This document shows positions 27,421 through 46,715 of a stretch of 64,000 bases of DNA, one piece after another (position 1 is the stretch's first letter; every line of letters begins with the position of its first letter). The translations under genes were made by a program, and so were the position numbers. The notes beneath the pieces were generated by a model. It worked only from the letters and a program-made list of their open reading frames with translations. It was not told the DNA's origin and made no database searches. Source of the stretch: Chitinophaga pinensis (lineage in GTDB: Bacteria > Bacteroidota > Bacteroidia > NS11-12g > UBA9320). The stretch lies in the NCBI GenBank assembly GCA_945897885.1, contig CAMDGU010000008.1, positions 817 through 64,816 of the forward strand, given 5' to 3'.

Positions 27421-28591
27421 AAACTAAGTACAAAAATAAAGCTAATATAGTTACAGGAAGGTGAAATTGTATCCAGTCTGTATTTTTAAATAATCCGTTG
27501 ATTGGTAAAAATAATGGGGCTAATAATACAAGCCAAATCCATTTTCCATTGCCGTTGGTTTCATTGCCGTTGGTTTTAACCAACGGAACCAAAAAAACAA
27601 GAAGCAAACAATCATAAATAAGGTGATAGCTAAATAGAAGGTTCCAAAGAATAAGCAATCCTAAAAATGAATGCTCTTTAATAAAACCTTTATAATAAAA
27701 CCAAACCAAAATAAGGATCCCTGAAAACATCATAATTATATTAAACACCGAAATGAATTTATAATCTATCCCTCCGAAATAATTTAGCAAAATACCCAAT
27801 TCAGTGAGGTTTGTATTTACGGCTGTAAGTGTTGCCCCTGCATAGTTTATTTGCATTTGCGTTGCCATATTTTTAAGCATTTCAGGGATATATAAATTGC
27901 CTGAAACCTGATAAAAACTGAAAGCCGCCAGTATGGGAAAAATACTTGAAAAGAAAAGAAGTTTCCATTTTTTGTTAGCCAAAAATAGAACCACAAAAGG
28001 AATACATAAGGTTACTTTTAGCATTGCAATGCCAAGCAATAATCCTGAAAGAGCCTCTTTGTTTTTAGTATAAAAATACCATGAAGCCATGATGGCCGCC
28101 ATACTCATTAATAACGGCTGACCAAGCGTCACGGCCACCAAGGATGATTTAAAAGCCAACATAATTAGTAACCAGAACCAAAAATTTAAAGCTTTTATAT
28201 GAAATGATTTGGAGGCAAACCAAGCGATGATTAAAATAAAAAGCCAACTTAATATCCAAATTATTTGTTTGACCACAGGCCATGAAAAAAGGTAATAGGG
28301 AACTAAAATTGGGATAGCCCAAAACGGATAAATCATGCCGCAATCCTTAAACCCTGGAGGTTTGGTGGTATTTAAATTACTTTGTGCGGCAATATTTTGC
28401 CACTCTGTTTTTAGTAAACTATCGTTGTAAGGGTTTTCACCATGCAACCAAAGATTGCCTGCTATAAATACATTTCGGGCATCGTAAGGATAGTCAGCAT
28501 GATTATAAAGATTCTTAGTTTTATAACTATTTAGGACAACGAAACAAAGTAAAACACCAATTAACCCTCTCCGAATTAAAATTGGTTTCAT
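27383..28591 (-). CDS. GT87/DUF2029-like membrane glycosyltransferase
   Basis: GENPY, IYP, GQ, LK.TL and YD motifs; multiple TM helices. Confidence 0.65.
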   Translation of the reverse strand: MKPILIRRGLIGVLLCFVVLNSYKTKNLYNHADYPYDARNVFIAGNLWLHGENPYNDSLLKTEWQNIAAQSNLNTTKPPGFKDCGMIYPFWAIPILVPYYLFSWPVVKQIIWILSWLFILIIAWFASKSFHIKALNFWFWLLIMLAFKSSLVAVTLGQPLLMSMAAIMASWYFYTKNKEALSGLLLGIAMLKVTLCIPFVVLFLANKKWKLLFFSSIFPILAAFSFYQVSGNLYIPEMLKNMATQMQINYAGATLTAVNTNLTELGILLNYFGGIDYKFISVFNIIMMFSGILILVWFYYKGFIKEHSFLGLLILWNLLFSYHLIYDCLLLVFLVPLVKTNGNETNGNGKWIWLVLLAPLFLPINGLFKNTDWIQFHLPVTILALFLYLVYASYQHISNRGT

Positions 28592-43341: not shown

Positions 43342-43779
43342 TTAATTTGAAAAAGTTAAAAGTTTTAAAATTAATTTATGGTTGGTATTGGCTAAATCCA
43401 AATCTTGCGTCCATCCGTAGAATTCATCTTTTTTAAGCCATCGGTTTCGTTCTAAATAAAAATTCATATTGGCAGGGGCATCATTTTTTAGTGTCTCAAA
43501 ATTGATCTTTGATGCCGTTTTGAAAATTTGCTTCGCCTCTTTTCGCTTTAGTTCTTTTACAAAGCTAATTTTTGTAACACCACCTGGAATTGTTTCAAAT
43601 TTATAAACCATTCCGTTTCTAAGAAAAACCATTTTTTCATTCATTCCTGTAATTCCGCCATACGACCCAACGGCAATATTTTTTTTGGGCAATTCATTTT
43701 CTGTCATCATCTGCGATTTGCATGAAATAAGGAATAGTAAATTTAAGATTAGAAATGTATTTACAATTATGGGTTTCAA
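43342..43779 (-). CDS. Hypothetical lipoprotein
   Basis: Lipobox LISC; GSYGGITG motif. Confidence 0.65.
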   Translation of the reverse strand: MKPIIVNTFLILNLLFLISCKSQMMTENELPKKNIAVGSYGGITGMNEKMVFLRNGMVYKFETIPGGVTKISFVKELKRKEAKQIFKTASKINFETLKNDAPANMNFYLERNRWLKKDEFYGWTQDLDLANTNHKLILKLLTFSN

Positions 43780-43907
43780 GGCATGTAAAAGGGTTTAATA
43801 AGAAATAATTTCAAAGTTTAGAAAATTAATTGTGATAACCAACCGTTTAATACAAAGCCATGAAACCTGATTTGTTTGTGACGTTAAAAAAAATAATGGT
43901 GCGCCAT

Positions 43908-44789
43908 ATGAACCGTAAATTTGTCTTCTACCTATTGGTGTTTGCCTCCTTTTCGGCAATGGCTCAGCCAAATGAGCAAGTGTCTTTAAAAGATGCCATA
44001 AAGCAAAAATTAGTTATGGTAAGCGGACAATACAATGAAGGGAGCGTTCATTATCTGAGGCCGGTAGTTTTAACATTAGTAAGCCTTGTGGCACGACCTG
44101 TAAAATTAAAAATAGAATCGGGGGATTTGATGGAACCTGCCGATTCGAGTTGCCAGACAATGATGGTAGTTCGCGACACGTTTTTTGTTATGAAGCCAAA
44201 GCAAAAAGCTGTATTACAACCTTTTGGAATGTGTATTGAACCATCCGACGGTGCAGGAAGAGCAGGTTTGAAATACAAATTTATACCTAACAAAAATGCT
44301 AAGCTTATTGAAATTGCAAAGTTTATTAATGATAACAAATACCATGACGGCGTTGGGCAACAAGCCGTTTGGTGTGTGGCAGATATGGGCAAAAATTTGT
44401 TAAATATTAATGGGTATGACTCGGTAAGTCGCCTCAAATTAATTACAAAAGTGGCAGCTATAACCGGAAAAAAAATGCCGTCAAAAAGTGAGCTAAGCCA
44501 AGGCTATGAAAATTATGTAAGAACTCCTCAGGAAACGATTGGTGGCTCGTTTGAGTTTAAATTTTCGGATTCAAAAAAGGTACATATAGCTATGTTTAAT
44601 TCTCAAGGAATAGTTGTTAGGGAAATATACTATAACGCCAACGAAAAACCCGGAGTTCATAAGGTGAATTTTGAATTTGATTATACGGTATTTACCGATG
44701 AATACTACGATATAAAACTTATAGCGAATGAAGAAGTGATGCTAACATCGCGGGTGGATAGAAATAATGATAAATGGGAGGAGGATTAA
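43908..44789 (+). CDS. Secreted hypothetical protein with thioester-domain-like Cys/Gln motifs and CTD/FlgD-like tail
   Basis: Signal peptide (ASFSAMA-Q); FGMCIEP and QQAVW; C-terminal IAMFNSQGIVVREI..PGVH. Confidence 0.55.
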   Translation: MNRKFVFYLLVFASFSAMAQPNEQVSLKDAIKQKLVMVSGQYNEGSVHYLRPVVLTLVSLVARPVKLKIESGDLMEPADSSCQTMMVVRDTFFVMKPKQKAVLQPFGMCIEPSDGAGRAGLKYKFIPNKNAKLIEIAKFINDNKYHDGVGQQAVWCVADMGKNLLNINGYDSVSRLKLITKVAAITGKKMPSKSELSQGYENYVRTPQETIGGSFEFKFSDSKKVHIAMFNSQGIVVREIYYNANEKPGVHKVNFEFDYTVFTDEYYDIKLIANEEVMLTSRVDRNNDKWEED

Positions 44790-44793
44790 AGTG

Positions 44794-44851
44794 TCGCACG
44801 GAGGCAAGGAGTTGAGGAGTTTTTTCTCTGTGACTCTGCGTCTCTGTGCGA
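44794..44851. repeat. Palindromic repeat copy 1 flanking GxxExxY
   Basis: TCGCACGGAGGCAAGGAGTTGAGGAG-TTTTTT-CTCTGTGACTCTGCGTCTCTGTGCGA. Confidence 0.85.
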
Positions 44852-44869
44852 ACCTCATTTCCTTAATCT

Positions 44870-45250
44870 CTATCTTTTATCTAGGACCAATCGGGTAATA
44901 CCATCTATTAATAAAGATACATTAAAATTAATTAATAGCCCTACTTCAATACCCGATAATCGCAAGTATGTTAAAACAACTTTGGAATGCACAGGAGCTA
45001 TAGTCTCAATTGATTTTAATTCAACAACGACGGAATTTTCAATAATTAGGTCTGCACTGAACCCGAGTTCCAAATTTATGTTATCATAAACAACCGGAAG
45101 TGGTTGTTAACGTGTAAAAGAAATACCAAGTTTGTTCAATTCATAACAGATAATTTTTTCATAAACGGATTCGAGCAAGCCAGGACCTAATTGTTCATCT
45201 ATTTTTATACAAATTCCAATGATTGTTAAAGTTAATTCAGAGTGTTTCAT
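44870..45250 (-). pseudogene. GxxExxY protein (PD-(D/E)xK-like) with an in-frame TAA at codon 48
   Basis: LGPGLLESVYE, ADLIIENSVVVELKS, YLRLSG, GLLINFN; stop at 45107-45109. Confidence 0.9.
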
Positions 45251-45274
45251 TTCCTAAAAATTGTTTAAAAAAAA

Positions 45275-45333
45275 TCGCACGGAGGCACAGAGTTTGGGAG
45301 TTTTTTTCTCCATGACTCCGCATCTCCGTGCGA
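45275..45333. repeat. Palindromic repeat copy 2 flanking GxxExxY
   Basis: TCGCACGGAGGCACAGAGTTTGGGAG-TTTTTTT-CTCCATGACTCCGCATCTCCGTGCGA. Confidence 0.85.
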
Positions 45334-45345
45334 AACTCCTTATTC

Positions 45346-45729
45346 TTAGAAAGGTAAATTTTCGTCACCAATTTCAACCTCGGCAGGTTTATTTTTTGGT
45401 GATCCGGCTAATAAAAAATCATTAACCACTATTTCGGTAATGTATTTTGTGGTGCCGTCTTTGGCTTCATAGCTGCGGTTAGTTAAGCGGCCTTCAATTG
45501 ATAAGCGGTCGCCTTTGTTTACGTATTTTTCAATAGTGTCAACCGGTTTGCCCCAAACTACCAAATTGTGCCAGGTGGTTTCTTCCACGTACTCGCCTTT
45601 TTGATTCTTGCGTTTTTCAGATGTAGCTAATGATAAAGTGGCTACTTTGTTTCCATTGTCAAAAGTTTTTACTTCTGGTTCTTTTCCTACGTTACCGTAA
45701 AGGCGTACTGAATTTCTTAATGTGTTCAT
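45346..45729 (-). CDS. ssb: Single-stranded DNA-binding protein
   Basis: NSVRLYGNVGKEPE, TWHNLVVWGK, IEGRL..RSY, C-terminal DENLPF. Confidence 0.95.
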   Translation of the reverse strand: MNTLRNSVRLYGNVGKEPEVKTFDNGNKVATLSLATSEKRKNQKGEYVEETTWHNLVVWGKPVDTIEKYVNKGDRLSIEGRLTNRSYEAKDGTTKYITEIVVNDFLLAGSPKNKPAEVEIGDENLPF

Positions 45730-45937
45730 GTTTTTTTTTAATTAAATGGTTAAATTATTTTTCGTTAATCCCTTCTTCTCTCGAAAGGCAGTACAAAGAT
45801 GTGGTGGTGGTTTTGTTCGATTCGGTTAAGAAATATTTACAGTCTTTTACAACTATTTGTAATCGTTTGTTGTCGGAAATAAATTTTAGGGTTATATTTG
45901 TGTAACTCTTTGTCAATAAAGCGTTAAAGCAAACTTT

Positions 45938-46297
45938 ATGGAAACAAAATATTGCCTAGATTGTGAAACTAAAATTTTAGGCCGGGCTGATAAAAAATTT
46001 TGCAGTGATGCCTGCCGTAATAATTACAATAATCGCCAGAACAGCGACACCACGGCCCTAATGCGAAACATTAATAATGCACTTCGGAAAAACCGCCGCA
46101 TACTTCAGGAATCTATATCCAATGAAGAGGGCAAGGCCTCGGTGCCAACAAAAAAATTAACTTCTCAAGGATTTAGTTTTGACTATTTCACACATATACT
46201 AAACACCAAAACCGGTAATACCTATTACTTTTGTTATGAATATGGCTACCGCAAACTTGACGGAGATTACTACTTAGTGGTGAAACGGGAGGAATGA
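45938..46297 (+). CDS. Conserved Zn-ribbon hypothetical protein (DUF2116-like)
   Basis: CLDC..GRADKKFCSDACRNNYNN, FCYEYGY; TATATTTG promoter at 45893-45900. Confidence 0.8.
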   Translation: METKYCLDCETKILGRADKKFCSDACRNNYNNRQNSDTTALMRNINNALRKNRRILQESISNEEGKASVPTKKLTSQGFSFDYFTHILNTKTGNTYYFCYEYGYRKLDGDYYLVVKREE

Positions 46298-46356
46298 TTA
46301 ACAGTTGATAATCTTTTAAAAAAAAATATTAAATCAGAAATGAGAGAGTTATTTAA

Positions 46357-46409
46357 CAACTACACCACAATCCCTTCCAAATCCAATAAAAAAGCTTATT
46401 CCAAAGCTA
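46357..46409 (-). repeat. Displaced duplicate of ptrB 3' end
   Basis: 49/53 nt identical to 46859-46911. Confidence 0.85.
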
Positions 46410-46481
46410 TTATTTATAAGGCGTGTTCAACCTGAACCAAATTTATTACTTTTAAGTTTTTTTGTGTAAAGATTTTTATAA

Positions 46482-46715
46482 ATGAATATACAGTTAGAAA
46501 AACTTGGATTAATAGAATGGATTTCAAAAATTAATGATTCTTCCATTATCGAAAAGATTCGAAAAATTCATGATGAATATGCCGTAACCCCTAATTGGTG
46601 GGATGAGATTTCAAGGCAGGAAAAAGAATCTATAAAAAGAGGGCTGAAAGATATTGCAGAAGGAAAGGTTCACATTCATGAAACTGCAAAGCAAGTTTAT
46701 GAGAAATACCTATAA
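46482..46715 (+). CDS. Orphan antitoxin-like (addiction module) protein
   Basis: KLGLIEWI, WWDEIS..EKESIKRGLKDI.EGKV..HE pattern typical of Bacteroidota RelE-partner antitoxins; no toxin gene follows. Confidence 0.65.
   Translation: MNIQLEKLGLIEWISKINDSSIIEKIRKIHDEYAVTPNWWDEISRQEKESIKRGLKDIAEGKVHIHETAKQVYEKYL

Follow-up and report, generated by a model that had tools for sequence, protein, structure and literature searches.

A decayed GxxExxY gene between two hairpin arrays, best seen as a dead member of a widespread kind of nuclease cassette

The window, that is the whole stretch of DNA analysed, comprises 64,000 nucleotides (nt) of contig CAMDGU010000008.1 from the Chitinophaga pinensis assembly GCA_945897885.1. 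It belongs to contig C8 of genome G000, whose relatives are labelled G001 to G010 (11 related genomes in total). Between a gene encoding a 309 amino-acid protein and ssb, a spacer of 556 nt harbors a broken gene of the GxxExxY family (PF13366/TIGR04256) bracketed by two palindromic arrays. Sequence comparisons point to a dead copy of a widespread, apparently unpublished kind of hairpin-bounded nuclease cassette, and the cassette family is best regarded as a variant of the systems that couple a repeat to a cognate enzyme, here a putative PD-(D/E)xK nuclease. The favored explanation, to which a probability of about 0.55 is assigned, is that of a decayed selfish cassette in which a GxxExxY nuclease gene lies within its own inverted arrays and which would work in a manner similar to the pairs of REPINs (hairpins formed by two repetitive extragenic palindromic, or REP, sequences) and RAYTs (REP-associated tyrosine transposases). 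Comparisons between loci and between genomes show that such cassettes insert at gene junctions, persist under selection and are accompanied by gene-less palindromes of the same type. No description of hairpin-bounded GxxExxY cassettes was found in the literature, subscription journals and supplements lying outside the search.

The cassette of the window

Hairpin 1 (44794..44851, no strand) is formed by a left arm (44794-44819), a T6 loop (44820-44825) and a right arm (44826-44851), while hairpin 2 (45275..45333, no strand) comprises a left arm (45275-45300), a T7 loop (45301-45307) and a right arm (45308-45333). All arms are 26 nt long and assemble three tandem 8-nt units (CACGGAGG CAAGGAGT TGAGGAGT and their complements) of the CACRGAG type, each array being doubled into a full palindrome; the outer termini of hairpin 1 are TCGC/GCGA. 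The arms of the two copies are direct repeats, identical at 43 of 52 positions (83%). Hairpin 1 pairs best on the + strand, with 17 Watson-Crick pairs, 6 G-T pairs and 3 mismatches, and hairpin 2 displays 19 Watson-Crick pairs, 2 G-T pairs and 5 mismatches. On the + strand the folding energies are -36.1 and -32.2 kcal/mol for hairpins 1 and 2 (z -5.7 each), and none of 200 dinucleotide shuffles folds as well as either; the energy of hairpin 2 on the - strand is -37.1 kcal/mol (z -7.4). An earlier note, made by a model from the sequence alone, had described two similar hairpins built from ~8-nt CACRGAG subunits that tightly bracket a GxxExxY gene, and this description holds: the hairpins are alike, they fold far better than shuffled DNA, each arm contains three subunits, and the gaps of 18 nt (gene stop to hairpin 1) and 24 nt (gene start to hairpin 2) are exact. 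The same note held that several differences between the copies preserve pairing, which is true of two of the seven differing stem positions (G-T/G-C swaps); one further position gains a pair, and four lose or lack one.

The enclosed gene (44870..45250, - strand, 126 codons) is interrupted by an in-frame TAA at codon 48 (45107-45109), and its reading frame being thus broken, the window copy is a pseudogene of the GxxExxY (PDDEXK_3) family. When read through the TAA, it matches PF13366 (E 1.3e-36, 125.9 bits for a cut-off of 22), its sole Pfam match, as well as TIGR04256, "GxxExxY protein" (E 4.5e-39, 133.4 bits for a cut-off of 35). It still encodes the catalytic E, D and ExK residues, and the GxxExxY and catalytic columns are invariant in the alignment of the four G000 paralogues. 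The stop aligns with a glutamine common to the three other paralogues, which makes the CAA>TAA origin proposed in the earlier note plausible. In the family tree the pseudogene stands on a long terminal branch (0.74), and its nearest intact homologues, named as from Chitinophagales and Saprospiraceae, are 77% identical. Single in-frame stops are also found, at differing codons, in 2 of the 80 genome loci described below (L057, L089), and, among the matches listed for relatives, in G001:C155:133-474 and G003:C147:20583-20924; the position of these stops indicates that decay of individual copies is recurrent.

Insertion at the junction and state in other populations

Using the 309 amino-acid protein, the loci of 15 relatives were fetched, and three congeners (G001, G008 and G010) keep its gene adjoining ssb. 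In G001 and G010, the spacer between these two genes measures only 75-76 nt and contains a plain GC hairpin terminator. In G008, a 135-nt spacer contains a gene-less palindrome, whose arms of CACGGAGG/CACAGAG units surround a small inner hairpin. No congener possesses an orthologue of the pseudogene at this locus (best match 45%), and the gene is hence not one conserved vertically there. The search for empty sites beside ssb, suggested by the earlier note, thus returned two of them and a gene-less form. By this comparison, the window cassette is shown to be an insertion.

The cassette, both hairpins and the TAA are unchanged in the contigs of X2, X4 and X6, three further DNA metagenomes that come from different studies. 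The window copy is dead and, within the limits of contig data, does not vary across these metagenomes. Position 44807 is an A in the window and a C in all four other runs, the C restoring a CACGGAG unit and a base pair; the A is either a private change of the population behind this assembly or an assembly error. Position 45074 is likewise an A in the window and a C in the four other runs. Contigs of an RNA library (X16) span 44880-45139 and, over hairpin 1, 44729-44895, while ssb is left uncovered; strand and DNA carry-over being indistinguishable in these contigs, nothing is drawn from them.

Array packaging across the GxxExxY family

Genome G000 contains four PF13366 genes, the window copy and three intact ones, all located inside inverted arrays of tandem ~8-nt units: CACRGAG units at C74 and in the window, CACATAGG units at C61 and CACGAAA units at C55. 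This packaging extends far beyond the genome. In a set of 80 loci from many phyla, a gene-spanning inverted repeat with a score of at least 12 was found at 61 loci, as compared to 2 of 133 shifted positions within the same loci that served as controls, and at a score of at least 16 the counts are 42 of 80 and 0 of 133. A metagenome scan aimed at sequences close to the pseudogene (77%) yielded relatives of at most 63% identity, and these made up a replication set, from which 4 of 80 loci were skipped because of too short flanks: a score of at least 12 was reached by 42 of 76 loci versus 2 of 103 controls, and a score of at least 16 by 27 of 76 versus 0 of 103. The enrichment of flanking arrays at GxxExxY genes, which the earlier note had proposed to look for, is therefore observed twice.

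The autocorrelation of the arms is maximal at lag 8 (0.425 versus 0.295 for shuffled arms), which is the best lag in 20 of 40 arms, the remainder having theirs at 9-11. A period-8 detector set at 80% unit identity does not pick up the window hairpins, and the autocorrelation averaged over all strong G000 hairpins has no lag-8 peak because terminators dominate that set. The purine-rich arm, starting with (A)ACC[AG]C, is upstream in 47 of the 61 loci. The window layout, with a complete palindrome on each side, belongs to a minority (6 of 79 loci), arm-gene-arm being the norm. According to record titles, the loci originate from Bacteroidota, Planctomycetota, Verrucomicrobiota, Acidobacteriota and Proteobacteria, and the titles suggest that isolates of Flavobacterium, Chryseobacterium, Echinicola or Lacihabitans are among the carriers; comparison of these loci shows that the gene and its arrays travel as one unit across phyla.

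At C55, the downstream arm (G000:C55:10720-10750) overlaps the predicted GTG start and the first ~11 codons of a neighboring gene encoding 346 amino acids. The array may supply the N-terminus of this protein, or the start may be mis-predicted.

Gene-less palindromes and turnover of sites

Arrays were counted with the pattern CACRGAGNCACRGAG, allowing up to 1 mismatch, and with the reversed pattern as a control. The pattern/control counts are 47/2 in G000, 34/0 in G003, 39/14 in G001, 15/1 in G008 and 0/0 in G004. The G000 matches form 26 clusters, 25 of which lie outside any open reading frame (ORF) of at least 90 amino acids; 24 are gene-less, in keeping with the solo repeats that the earlier note had suggested to look for genome-wide. 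Gene-less clusters occur between neighbors in every orientation, divergent pairs included, and often 6-30 nt from a stop or a start. They end with TTAC|CACGG...CCGTG|GTAA or TTAA|...|TTAA, as does the gene-bearing C74 cassette. The array consensus is genome-specific, CACGGAGAC in G001 and CACGGAGGC in the others.

Filled and empty sites were compared between congeners whose flanking genes share 80-90% identity. The C15 palindrome of G000 is absent from G008 and G010, where the genes overlap (TAATG), and from G003, which has a short spacer instead. The C75 palindrome is found in G000 and G003 and is absent from G008 and G006. The site of the C74 cassette is empty in G008 and G001, while G010 possesses there a 70-nt gene-less palindrome that has the unusual unit CTCTATGCCTC in common with the cassette; this shared unit suggests a single insertion whose gene was later lost or gained. 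The C61 cassette occupies an orthologous site in G000, G003 and G001 and is absent from G008, G010 and G009. Comparison thus shows that gene-less palindromes with the same termini occupy many junctions of G000 and come and go between close relatives.

At the C61 site, G007 (G007:C2, about 27668-27711) has the termini TTGAACCAC ... GTGGTTCGA only, around a 30-nt GC hairpin. This remnant may have arisen from the C61 cassette by internal deletion, or may be its footprint. A palindrome of the same TCGCACGGAGG subtype as the window hairpins is found "inside-out" at G000:C96 (L003:278-345): a pyrimidine-rich arm is followed by a T-rich loop and a purine-rich arm, the GCGA/TCGC termini facing the loop. 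It looks like the two inner arms of the window cassette, minus the gene.

The GxxExxY protein

For three orthologue pairs with a synonymous divergence of ~1 or more, the ratio of nonsynonymous to synonymous substitution rates (dN/dS) is 0.05, 0.11 and 0.09, as compared to 0.04 for a neighboring holB-like housekeeping gene; judged by these ratios, intact GxxExxY genes are under strong purifying selection. In a 78-sequence alignment, E33, D73 and K85 are invariant and E83 is at least 90% conserved. An AlphaFold model (predicted local distance difference test score, pLDDT, of 95.8) exhibits a predicted minimal PD-(D/E)xK fold; a model built from 4 sequences only was poor (pLDDT 73.7). Fold searches returned generic PD-(D/E)xK neighbors only, the best being Cas4 SSO0001 (Foldseek E 6e-4, template modeling score, TM, 0.43), with VIA Z values up to 7.4; these neighbors are too unspecific to suggest a substrate. 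A search of the PDB by sequence gave no match at E up to 1, and neither PADLOC nor PHROGs has a family for the three members submitted. The one survey of PD-(D/E)xK proteins that lists PF13366 gives its function as "Unknown" (PMC3424549).

The family is very large. A profile search gathered 37,753 PF13366/TIGR04256 clusters at 50% identity; no match was found in 50,697 phage records at E 1e-10, and 8 of 72,556 plasmid records have a family member, all of them predicted to be non-mobilizable. Two-domain tandem fusions were observed in 24 of the top 150 representatives, one of them Pfam-checked. These fusions hint at a dimer; a homodimer prediction with 2 copies scored 0.00, which counts neither way.

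A possible mechanism and its alternatives

In the favored explanation, the nuclease would recognize its own arrays by their tandem units and conserved termini (in this clade ACCAC.. or TCGC..) and would nick or cut there, after which host replication or repair would copy or remove the palindromes. That the cassettes constitute a new class of mobile DNA, in which a PD-(D/E)xK protein of ~130 amino acids is the sole element enzyme, recognizes terminal arrays of tandem 8-nt units and makes gene-less palindromes spread by cut and repair with neither transposase nor target duplication, is a tentative extension of this idea and rather unlikely.

The pairing of gene type with repeat type argues for the favored explanation. 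The ~95-nt CACATAGG hairpin located upstream of the C61 gene belongs to a repeat family with sharp ends, TTGAACCAC...GTGGTTCAA. At E of at most 1e-3 it has 21 matches in G000, 19 in G003 and 21 in G001, as compared to 2 in G010, 1 in G007 and none in the six others of the 11 related genomes. The C61-type gene is found only in G000, G003 and G001 (93% and 81% amino-acid identity), which are the CACATAGG-rich genomes. G008 and G010 possess neither this gene nor an abundant CACATAGG family, though their flanking genes are the most similar to those of G000. By this comparison the CACATAGG family is shown to be almost confined to genomes with the cognate gene. A second association is observed within the protein family, of which 33 PF13366 members taken from 25 related genomes were placed in a tree: the 13 proteins with GTCTGAA + ..GATT.. 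arms all fall in one clade (support 100/99), while the 13 with ACCAC + CAC..AG arms are located on the other side of the tree, both clades being encountered within single genomes.

Several observations weigh against the favored explanation. The arm-type labels were set by eye before the tree was built, and the protein/arm split is one deep branch, hence a single evolutionary contrast. Co-occurrence of gene and repeat across the 11 genomes is clear for the CACATAGG/C61 type and is broken for the CACRGAG type by G008, which has 15 array matches and, at 99% completeness, no PF13366 gene; this genome has 9 genes of PF05635, the 23S ribosomal RNA (rRNA) intervening-sequence/four-helix-bundle family. 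In G000 itself, all four PF05635 genes (C38:4722-5036, C15:3875-4189, C15:2895-3209 and C11:43708-43995) lie inside analogous inverted arrays of other units, namely ATTGAGAC octamers, GGTTGA hexamers and TTGAACAT units, and GGYTRA hexamer arrays have 112 matches in this genome versus 0 for the control. As PF05635 proteins are not nucleases, an element-encoded nuclease is unnecessary for such packaging. The four GxxExxY genes of G000 are mutually 36-52% identical, and nothing points to a recent duplication of the gene-bearing form. Gene-less copies are lacking for two arm types: CACGAAA-type arrays give 6 matches versus 5 for the control, and GTCTGAA-type arrays are found only as gene-flanking arms. 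No target-site duplication was detected at 14 element sites, in 13 aligned hairpin copies or in the filled/empty comparisons, a check that a palindromic 2-nt duplication such as TA would escape; this absence would fit PD-(D/E)xK enzymes, which cut without rejoining. Finally, the contigs of the three other metagenomes, which drop rare variants, contain no indel, joint, empty-site or deletion variant of the window cassette. The excision by repeat recombination envisaged in the earlier note accordingly finds no deletion to sustain it there, with the same reserve on rare variants.

In view of the arrays around non-nuclease genes and of the array-bearing G008, the GxxExxY gene may be cargo rather than engine. 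The array-bounded palindrome would then be a vehicle moved by host functions or by an enzyme encoded elsewhere, and the nuclease, like the four-helix-bundle proteins, would aid persistence, for example by addiction or array binding, and not movement. This alternative is unlikely, yet it is the one to be taken most seriously. Besides the PF05635 genes of G000 and G008, it accommodates the lack of target duplications and of near-identical gene copies, and the two sites (the window cassette and C74) at which a close relative has a gene-less palindrome in place of the G000 gene cassette would fit genes entering or leaving pre-existing palindromes. It is less at ease with the abundance of CACATAGG hairpins in the three cognate-gene genomes only, closer relatives of G000 lacking both, and with an arm family that tracks the protein clade within single genomes. 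The invariant catalytic residues, together with the dN/dS values of 0.05-0.11, also indicate that the nuclease activity itself is under selection.

It is also conceivable, with a distinctly low probability, that the arms work at the RNA level. In a read-through transcript they would pair into a long stem enclosing the ORF, which RNase III would cut, and this cutting, as in ORF-bearing 23S rRNA intervening sequences, would free or insulate the message and render the element harmless inside operons. Arms that closely enclose the ORF, cassettes located within a few bases of neighboring stops or starts, and the similar packaging of the PF05635 family in G000 are in line with this proposal, as is the orientation of the cassette gene, which is that of its upstream neighbor at 116 of 133 loci, as compared to 88 of 125 pairs of adjacent genes from these loci. 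However, among 61 gene-spanning arm pairs, sense-strand G-T mismatches (33) are not commoner than A-C mismatches (51), hence there is no sign of RNA-strand selection in the arms, and no double compensatory change was found among 13 copies of a related hairpin family. Gene-less copies occur in all neighbor orientations, including between divergent genes, and a role in RNA leaves the spread to new sites unexplained. Cutting in RNA and the selfish, array-recognizing cassette are compatible and do not exclude each other.

That the hairpins would be ordinary terminators of convergent neighbors, their likeness and position having no further meaning, is scarcely credible: on the ssb strand a T8 run follows hairpin 2 and a terminator hairpin stands at the same spot in G001 and G010, but the unit type recurs 47 times in G000 versus 2 for the control, hairpin 1 lacks a T tract, arrays bracket the gene family at 61 of 80 and 42 of 76 loci versus 2 of 133 and 2 of 103 controls, and a terminator scan flagged neither hairpin. 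Terminators are contradicted as a full explanation; terminator use of hairpin 2 alone stays likely and is part of the selfish-cassette explanation.

Comparison with known systems

REPIN-RAYT systems are the closest analogue. They resemble the cassettes (PMC3116915, PMC3337134, PMC5581495) in that a gene is flanked by its own palindromes and many gene-less palindromes populate the intergenic DNA of the same genome. Further likenesses are the co-occurrence of a repeat family with its cognate gene across genomes (the CACATAGG/C61 type here), a single gene copy per type that is vertically kept at the same site under purifying selection, and the lack of any target duplication among the cassettes compared. 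The enzymes differ, being a PD-(D/E)xK nuclease of ~130 amino acids (PF13366) here and a Y1 HUH transposase (PF01797) in RAYTs. The repeats differ as well: inverted arrays of at least 3 tandem 8-10-nt units are found here, whereas REPs are single GC-rich stem-loops that carry a GTAG or CGTC tag (PMC3733652). The cassette termini are TCGC, ACCAC or TTGAACCAC, with no GTAG/CGTC tag. Moreover, the cassette gene is inside the inverted repeat, and some cassette types have no gene-less copies. The REP/RAYT analogy put forward in the earlier note is borne out on several points, the CACATAGG co-occurrence and the purifying selection among them; the interpretation given in that note is, as a whole, partly supported.

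Insertion sequences (ISs) and miniature inverted-repeat transposable elements (MITEs) form pairs of autonomous and non-autonomous elements with terminal inverted repeats. The cassettes share with them sharp, conserved inverted termini common to gene-bearing and gene-less forms, a presence that varies at orthologous sites and a genome-specific repeat consensus. They differ by the lack of target-site duplication and of any DDE, serine or tyrosine recombinase, by gene copies that are 36-52% identical within a genome instead of near-identical, and by orthologues kept over a long term (synonymous divergence of ~1 or more). An identity with IS/MITE pairs was rejected, as there is no target duplication and no transposase, the PF13366 nuclease being the only ORF.

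Phage free-standing homing endonuclease genes are small nuclease genes located between conserved genes and present or absent among close relatives. The cassettes likewise place a small nuclease gene tightly between conserved genes, with a presence that varies among close relatives. Unlike these genes, they possess flanking inverted arrays, many gene-less copies and diverse sites instead of one cognate target, and their family is without a match in the phage records.

The 23S rRNA intervening sequence of Coxiella, which contains an S23p ORF, is described as selfish (PMC4990558). Its small ORF enclosed by complementary arms recalls the cassettes, and the S23p-family (PF05635) genes of G000 carry similar inverted arrays. 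The cassette, in contrast, is located between protein-coding genes, its ORF is a putative nuclease, its gene-less copies are dispersed, and the wobble-pair test gave no signal of excision at the RNA level. An rRNA intervening sequence was rejected as the identity of the locus, which lies between the 309 amino-acid protein gene and ssb: an Rfam search over 43500-46500 (evalue mode) found no rRNA, its two chance microRNA matches being far below gathering scores.

With its flanking arrays as a defined DNA partner, PF13366/TIGR04256 passes from an orphan family to one whose enzyme and candidate substrate can be tested together. Should the nuclease act on the arrays, the REPIN-RAYT arrangement would have been invented a second time, independently and with another enzyme fold, and the cassettes would commonly give rise to palindromes between genes, interrupted operons and artefacts of annotation across the five phyla named above. 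Were they a new class of mobile DNA, a role would be gained for a family that numbers some 38,000 clusters (50% identity), together with a mechanistic tie to the four-helix-bundle "rRNA intervening sequence" cassettes. For G000 itself the message is modest, that of a dead cassette of which a part probably now serves ssb.

Neighboring genes and other hairpin elements

On the left of the cassette, the 309 amino-acid protein gene (43860..44789, + strand) has no Pfam or NCBIfam match, and its stop is 4 nt before hairpin 1. On the right, ssb (45346..45729, - strand; PF00436, E 1.6e-30) is co-oriented with and upstream of the pseudogene, and its stop codon is 12 nt past the end of hairpin 2. Read from ssb, hairpin 2 is directly followed by an A8 run of the + strand (45267..45274, - strand feature), T8 on the ssb strand, and the ensemble has the shape of a putative intrinsic terminator for ssb. 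The consensus scan, which returned 0 terminator-like sites and promoter-like sites at chance level, did not flag it. Hairpin 2 and its T8 tail probably now serve as the ssb terminator.

In G010:C9 (L151:873-1325, - strand), a gene encoding a 151 amino-acid Y1_Tnp/IS200-like protein (PF01797, E 2.7e-24) has GC-rich hairpins on both sides. At the same junction, G000 (C75:5828-5899) and G003 exhibit the gene-less CACGGAGG palindrome, G001 a hybrid array element, and G008 and G006 nothing; on this comparison three kinds of hairpin element have settled at the C75 junction. Three further dispersed hairpin repeat families, unrelated to the octamer arrays, were observed in G000, with arms starting with TTGTCAT.CCGAGG.., GCCTTGATTCGTG.. 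and TTATCGGTTGGTGTC.. (C66:5021, C26:11419, C44:10194 and C1:15344; C118:2404 and C23:1128; C11:47244 and C29:25013).

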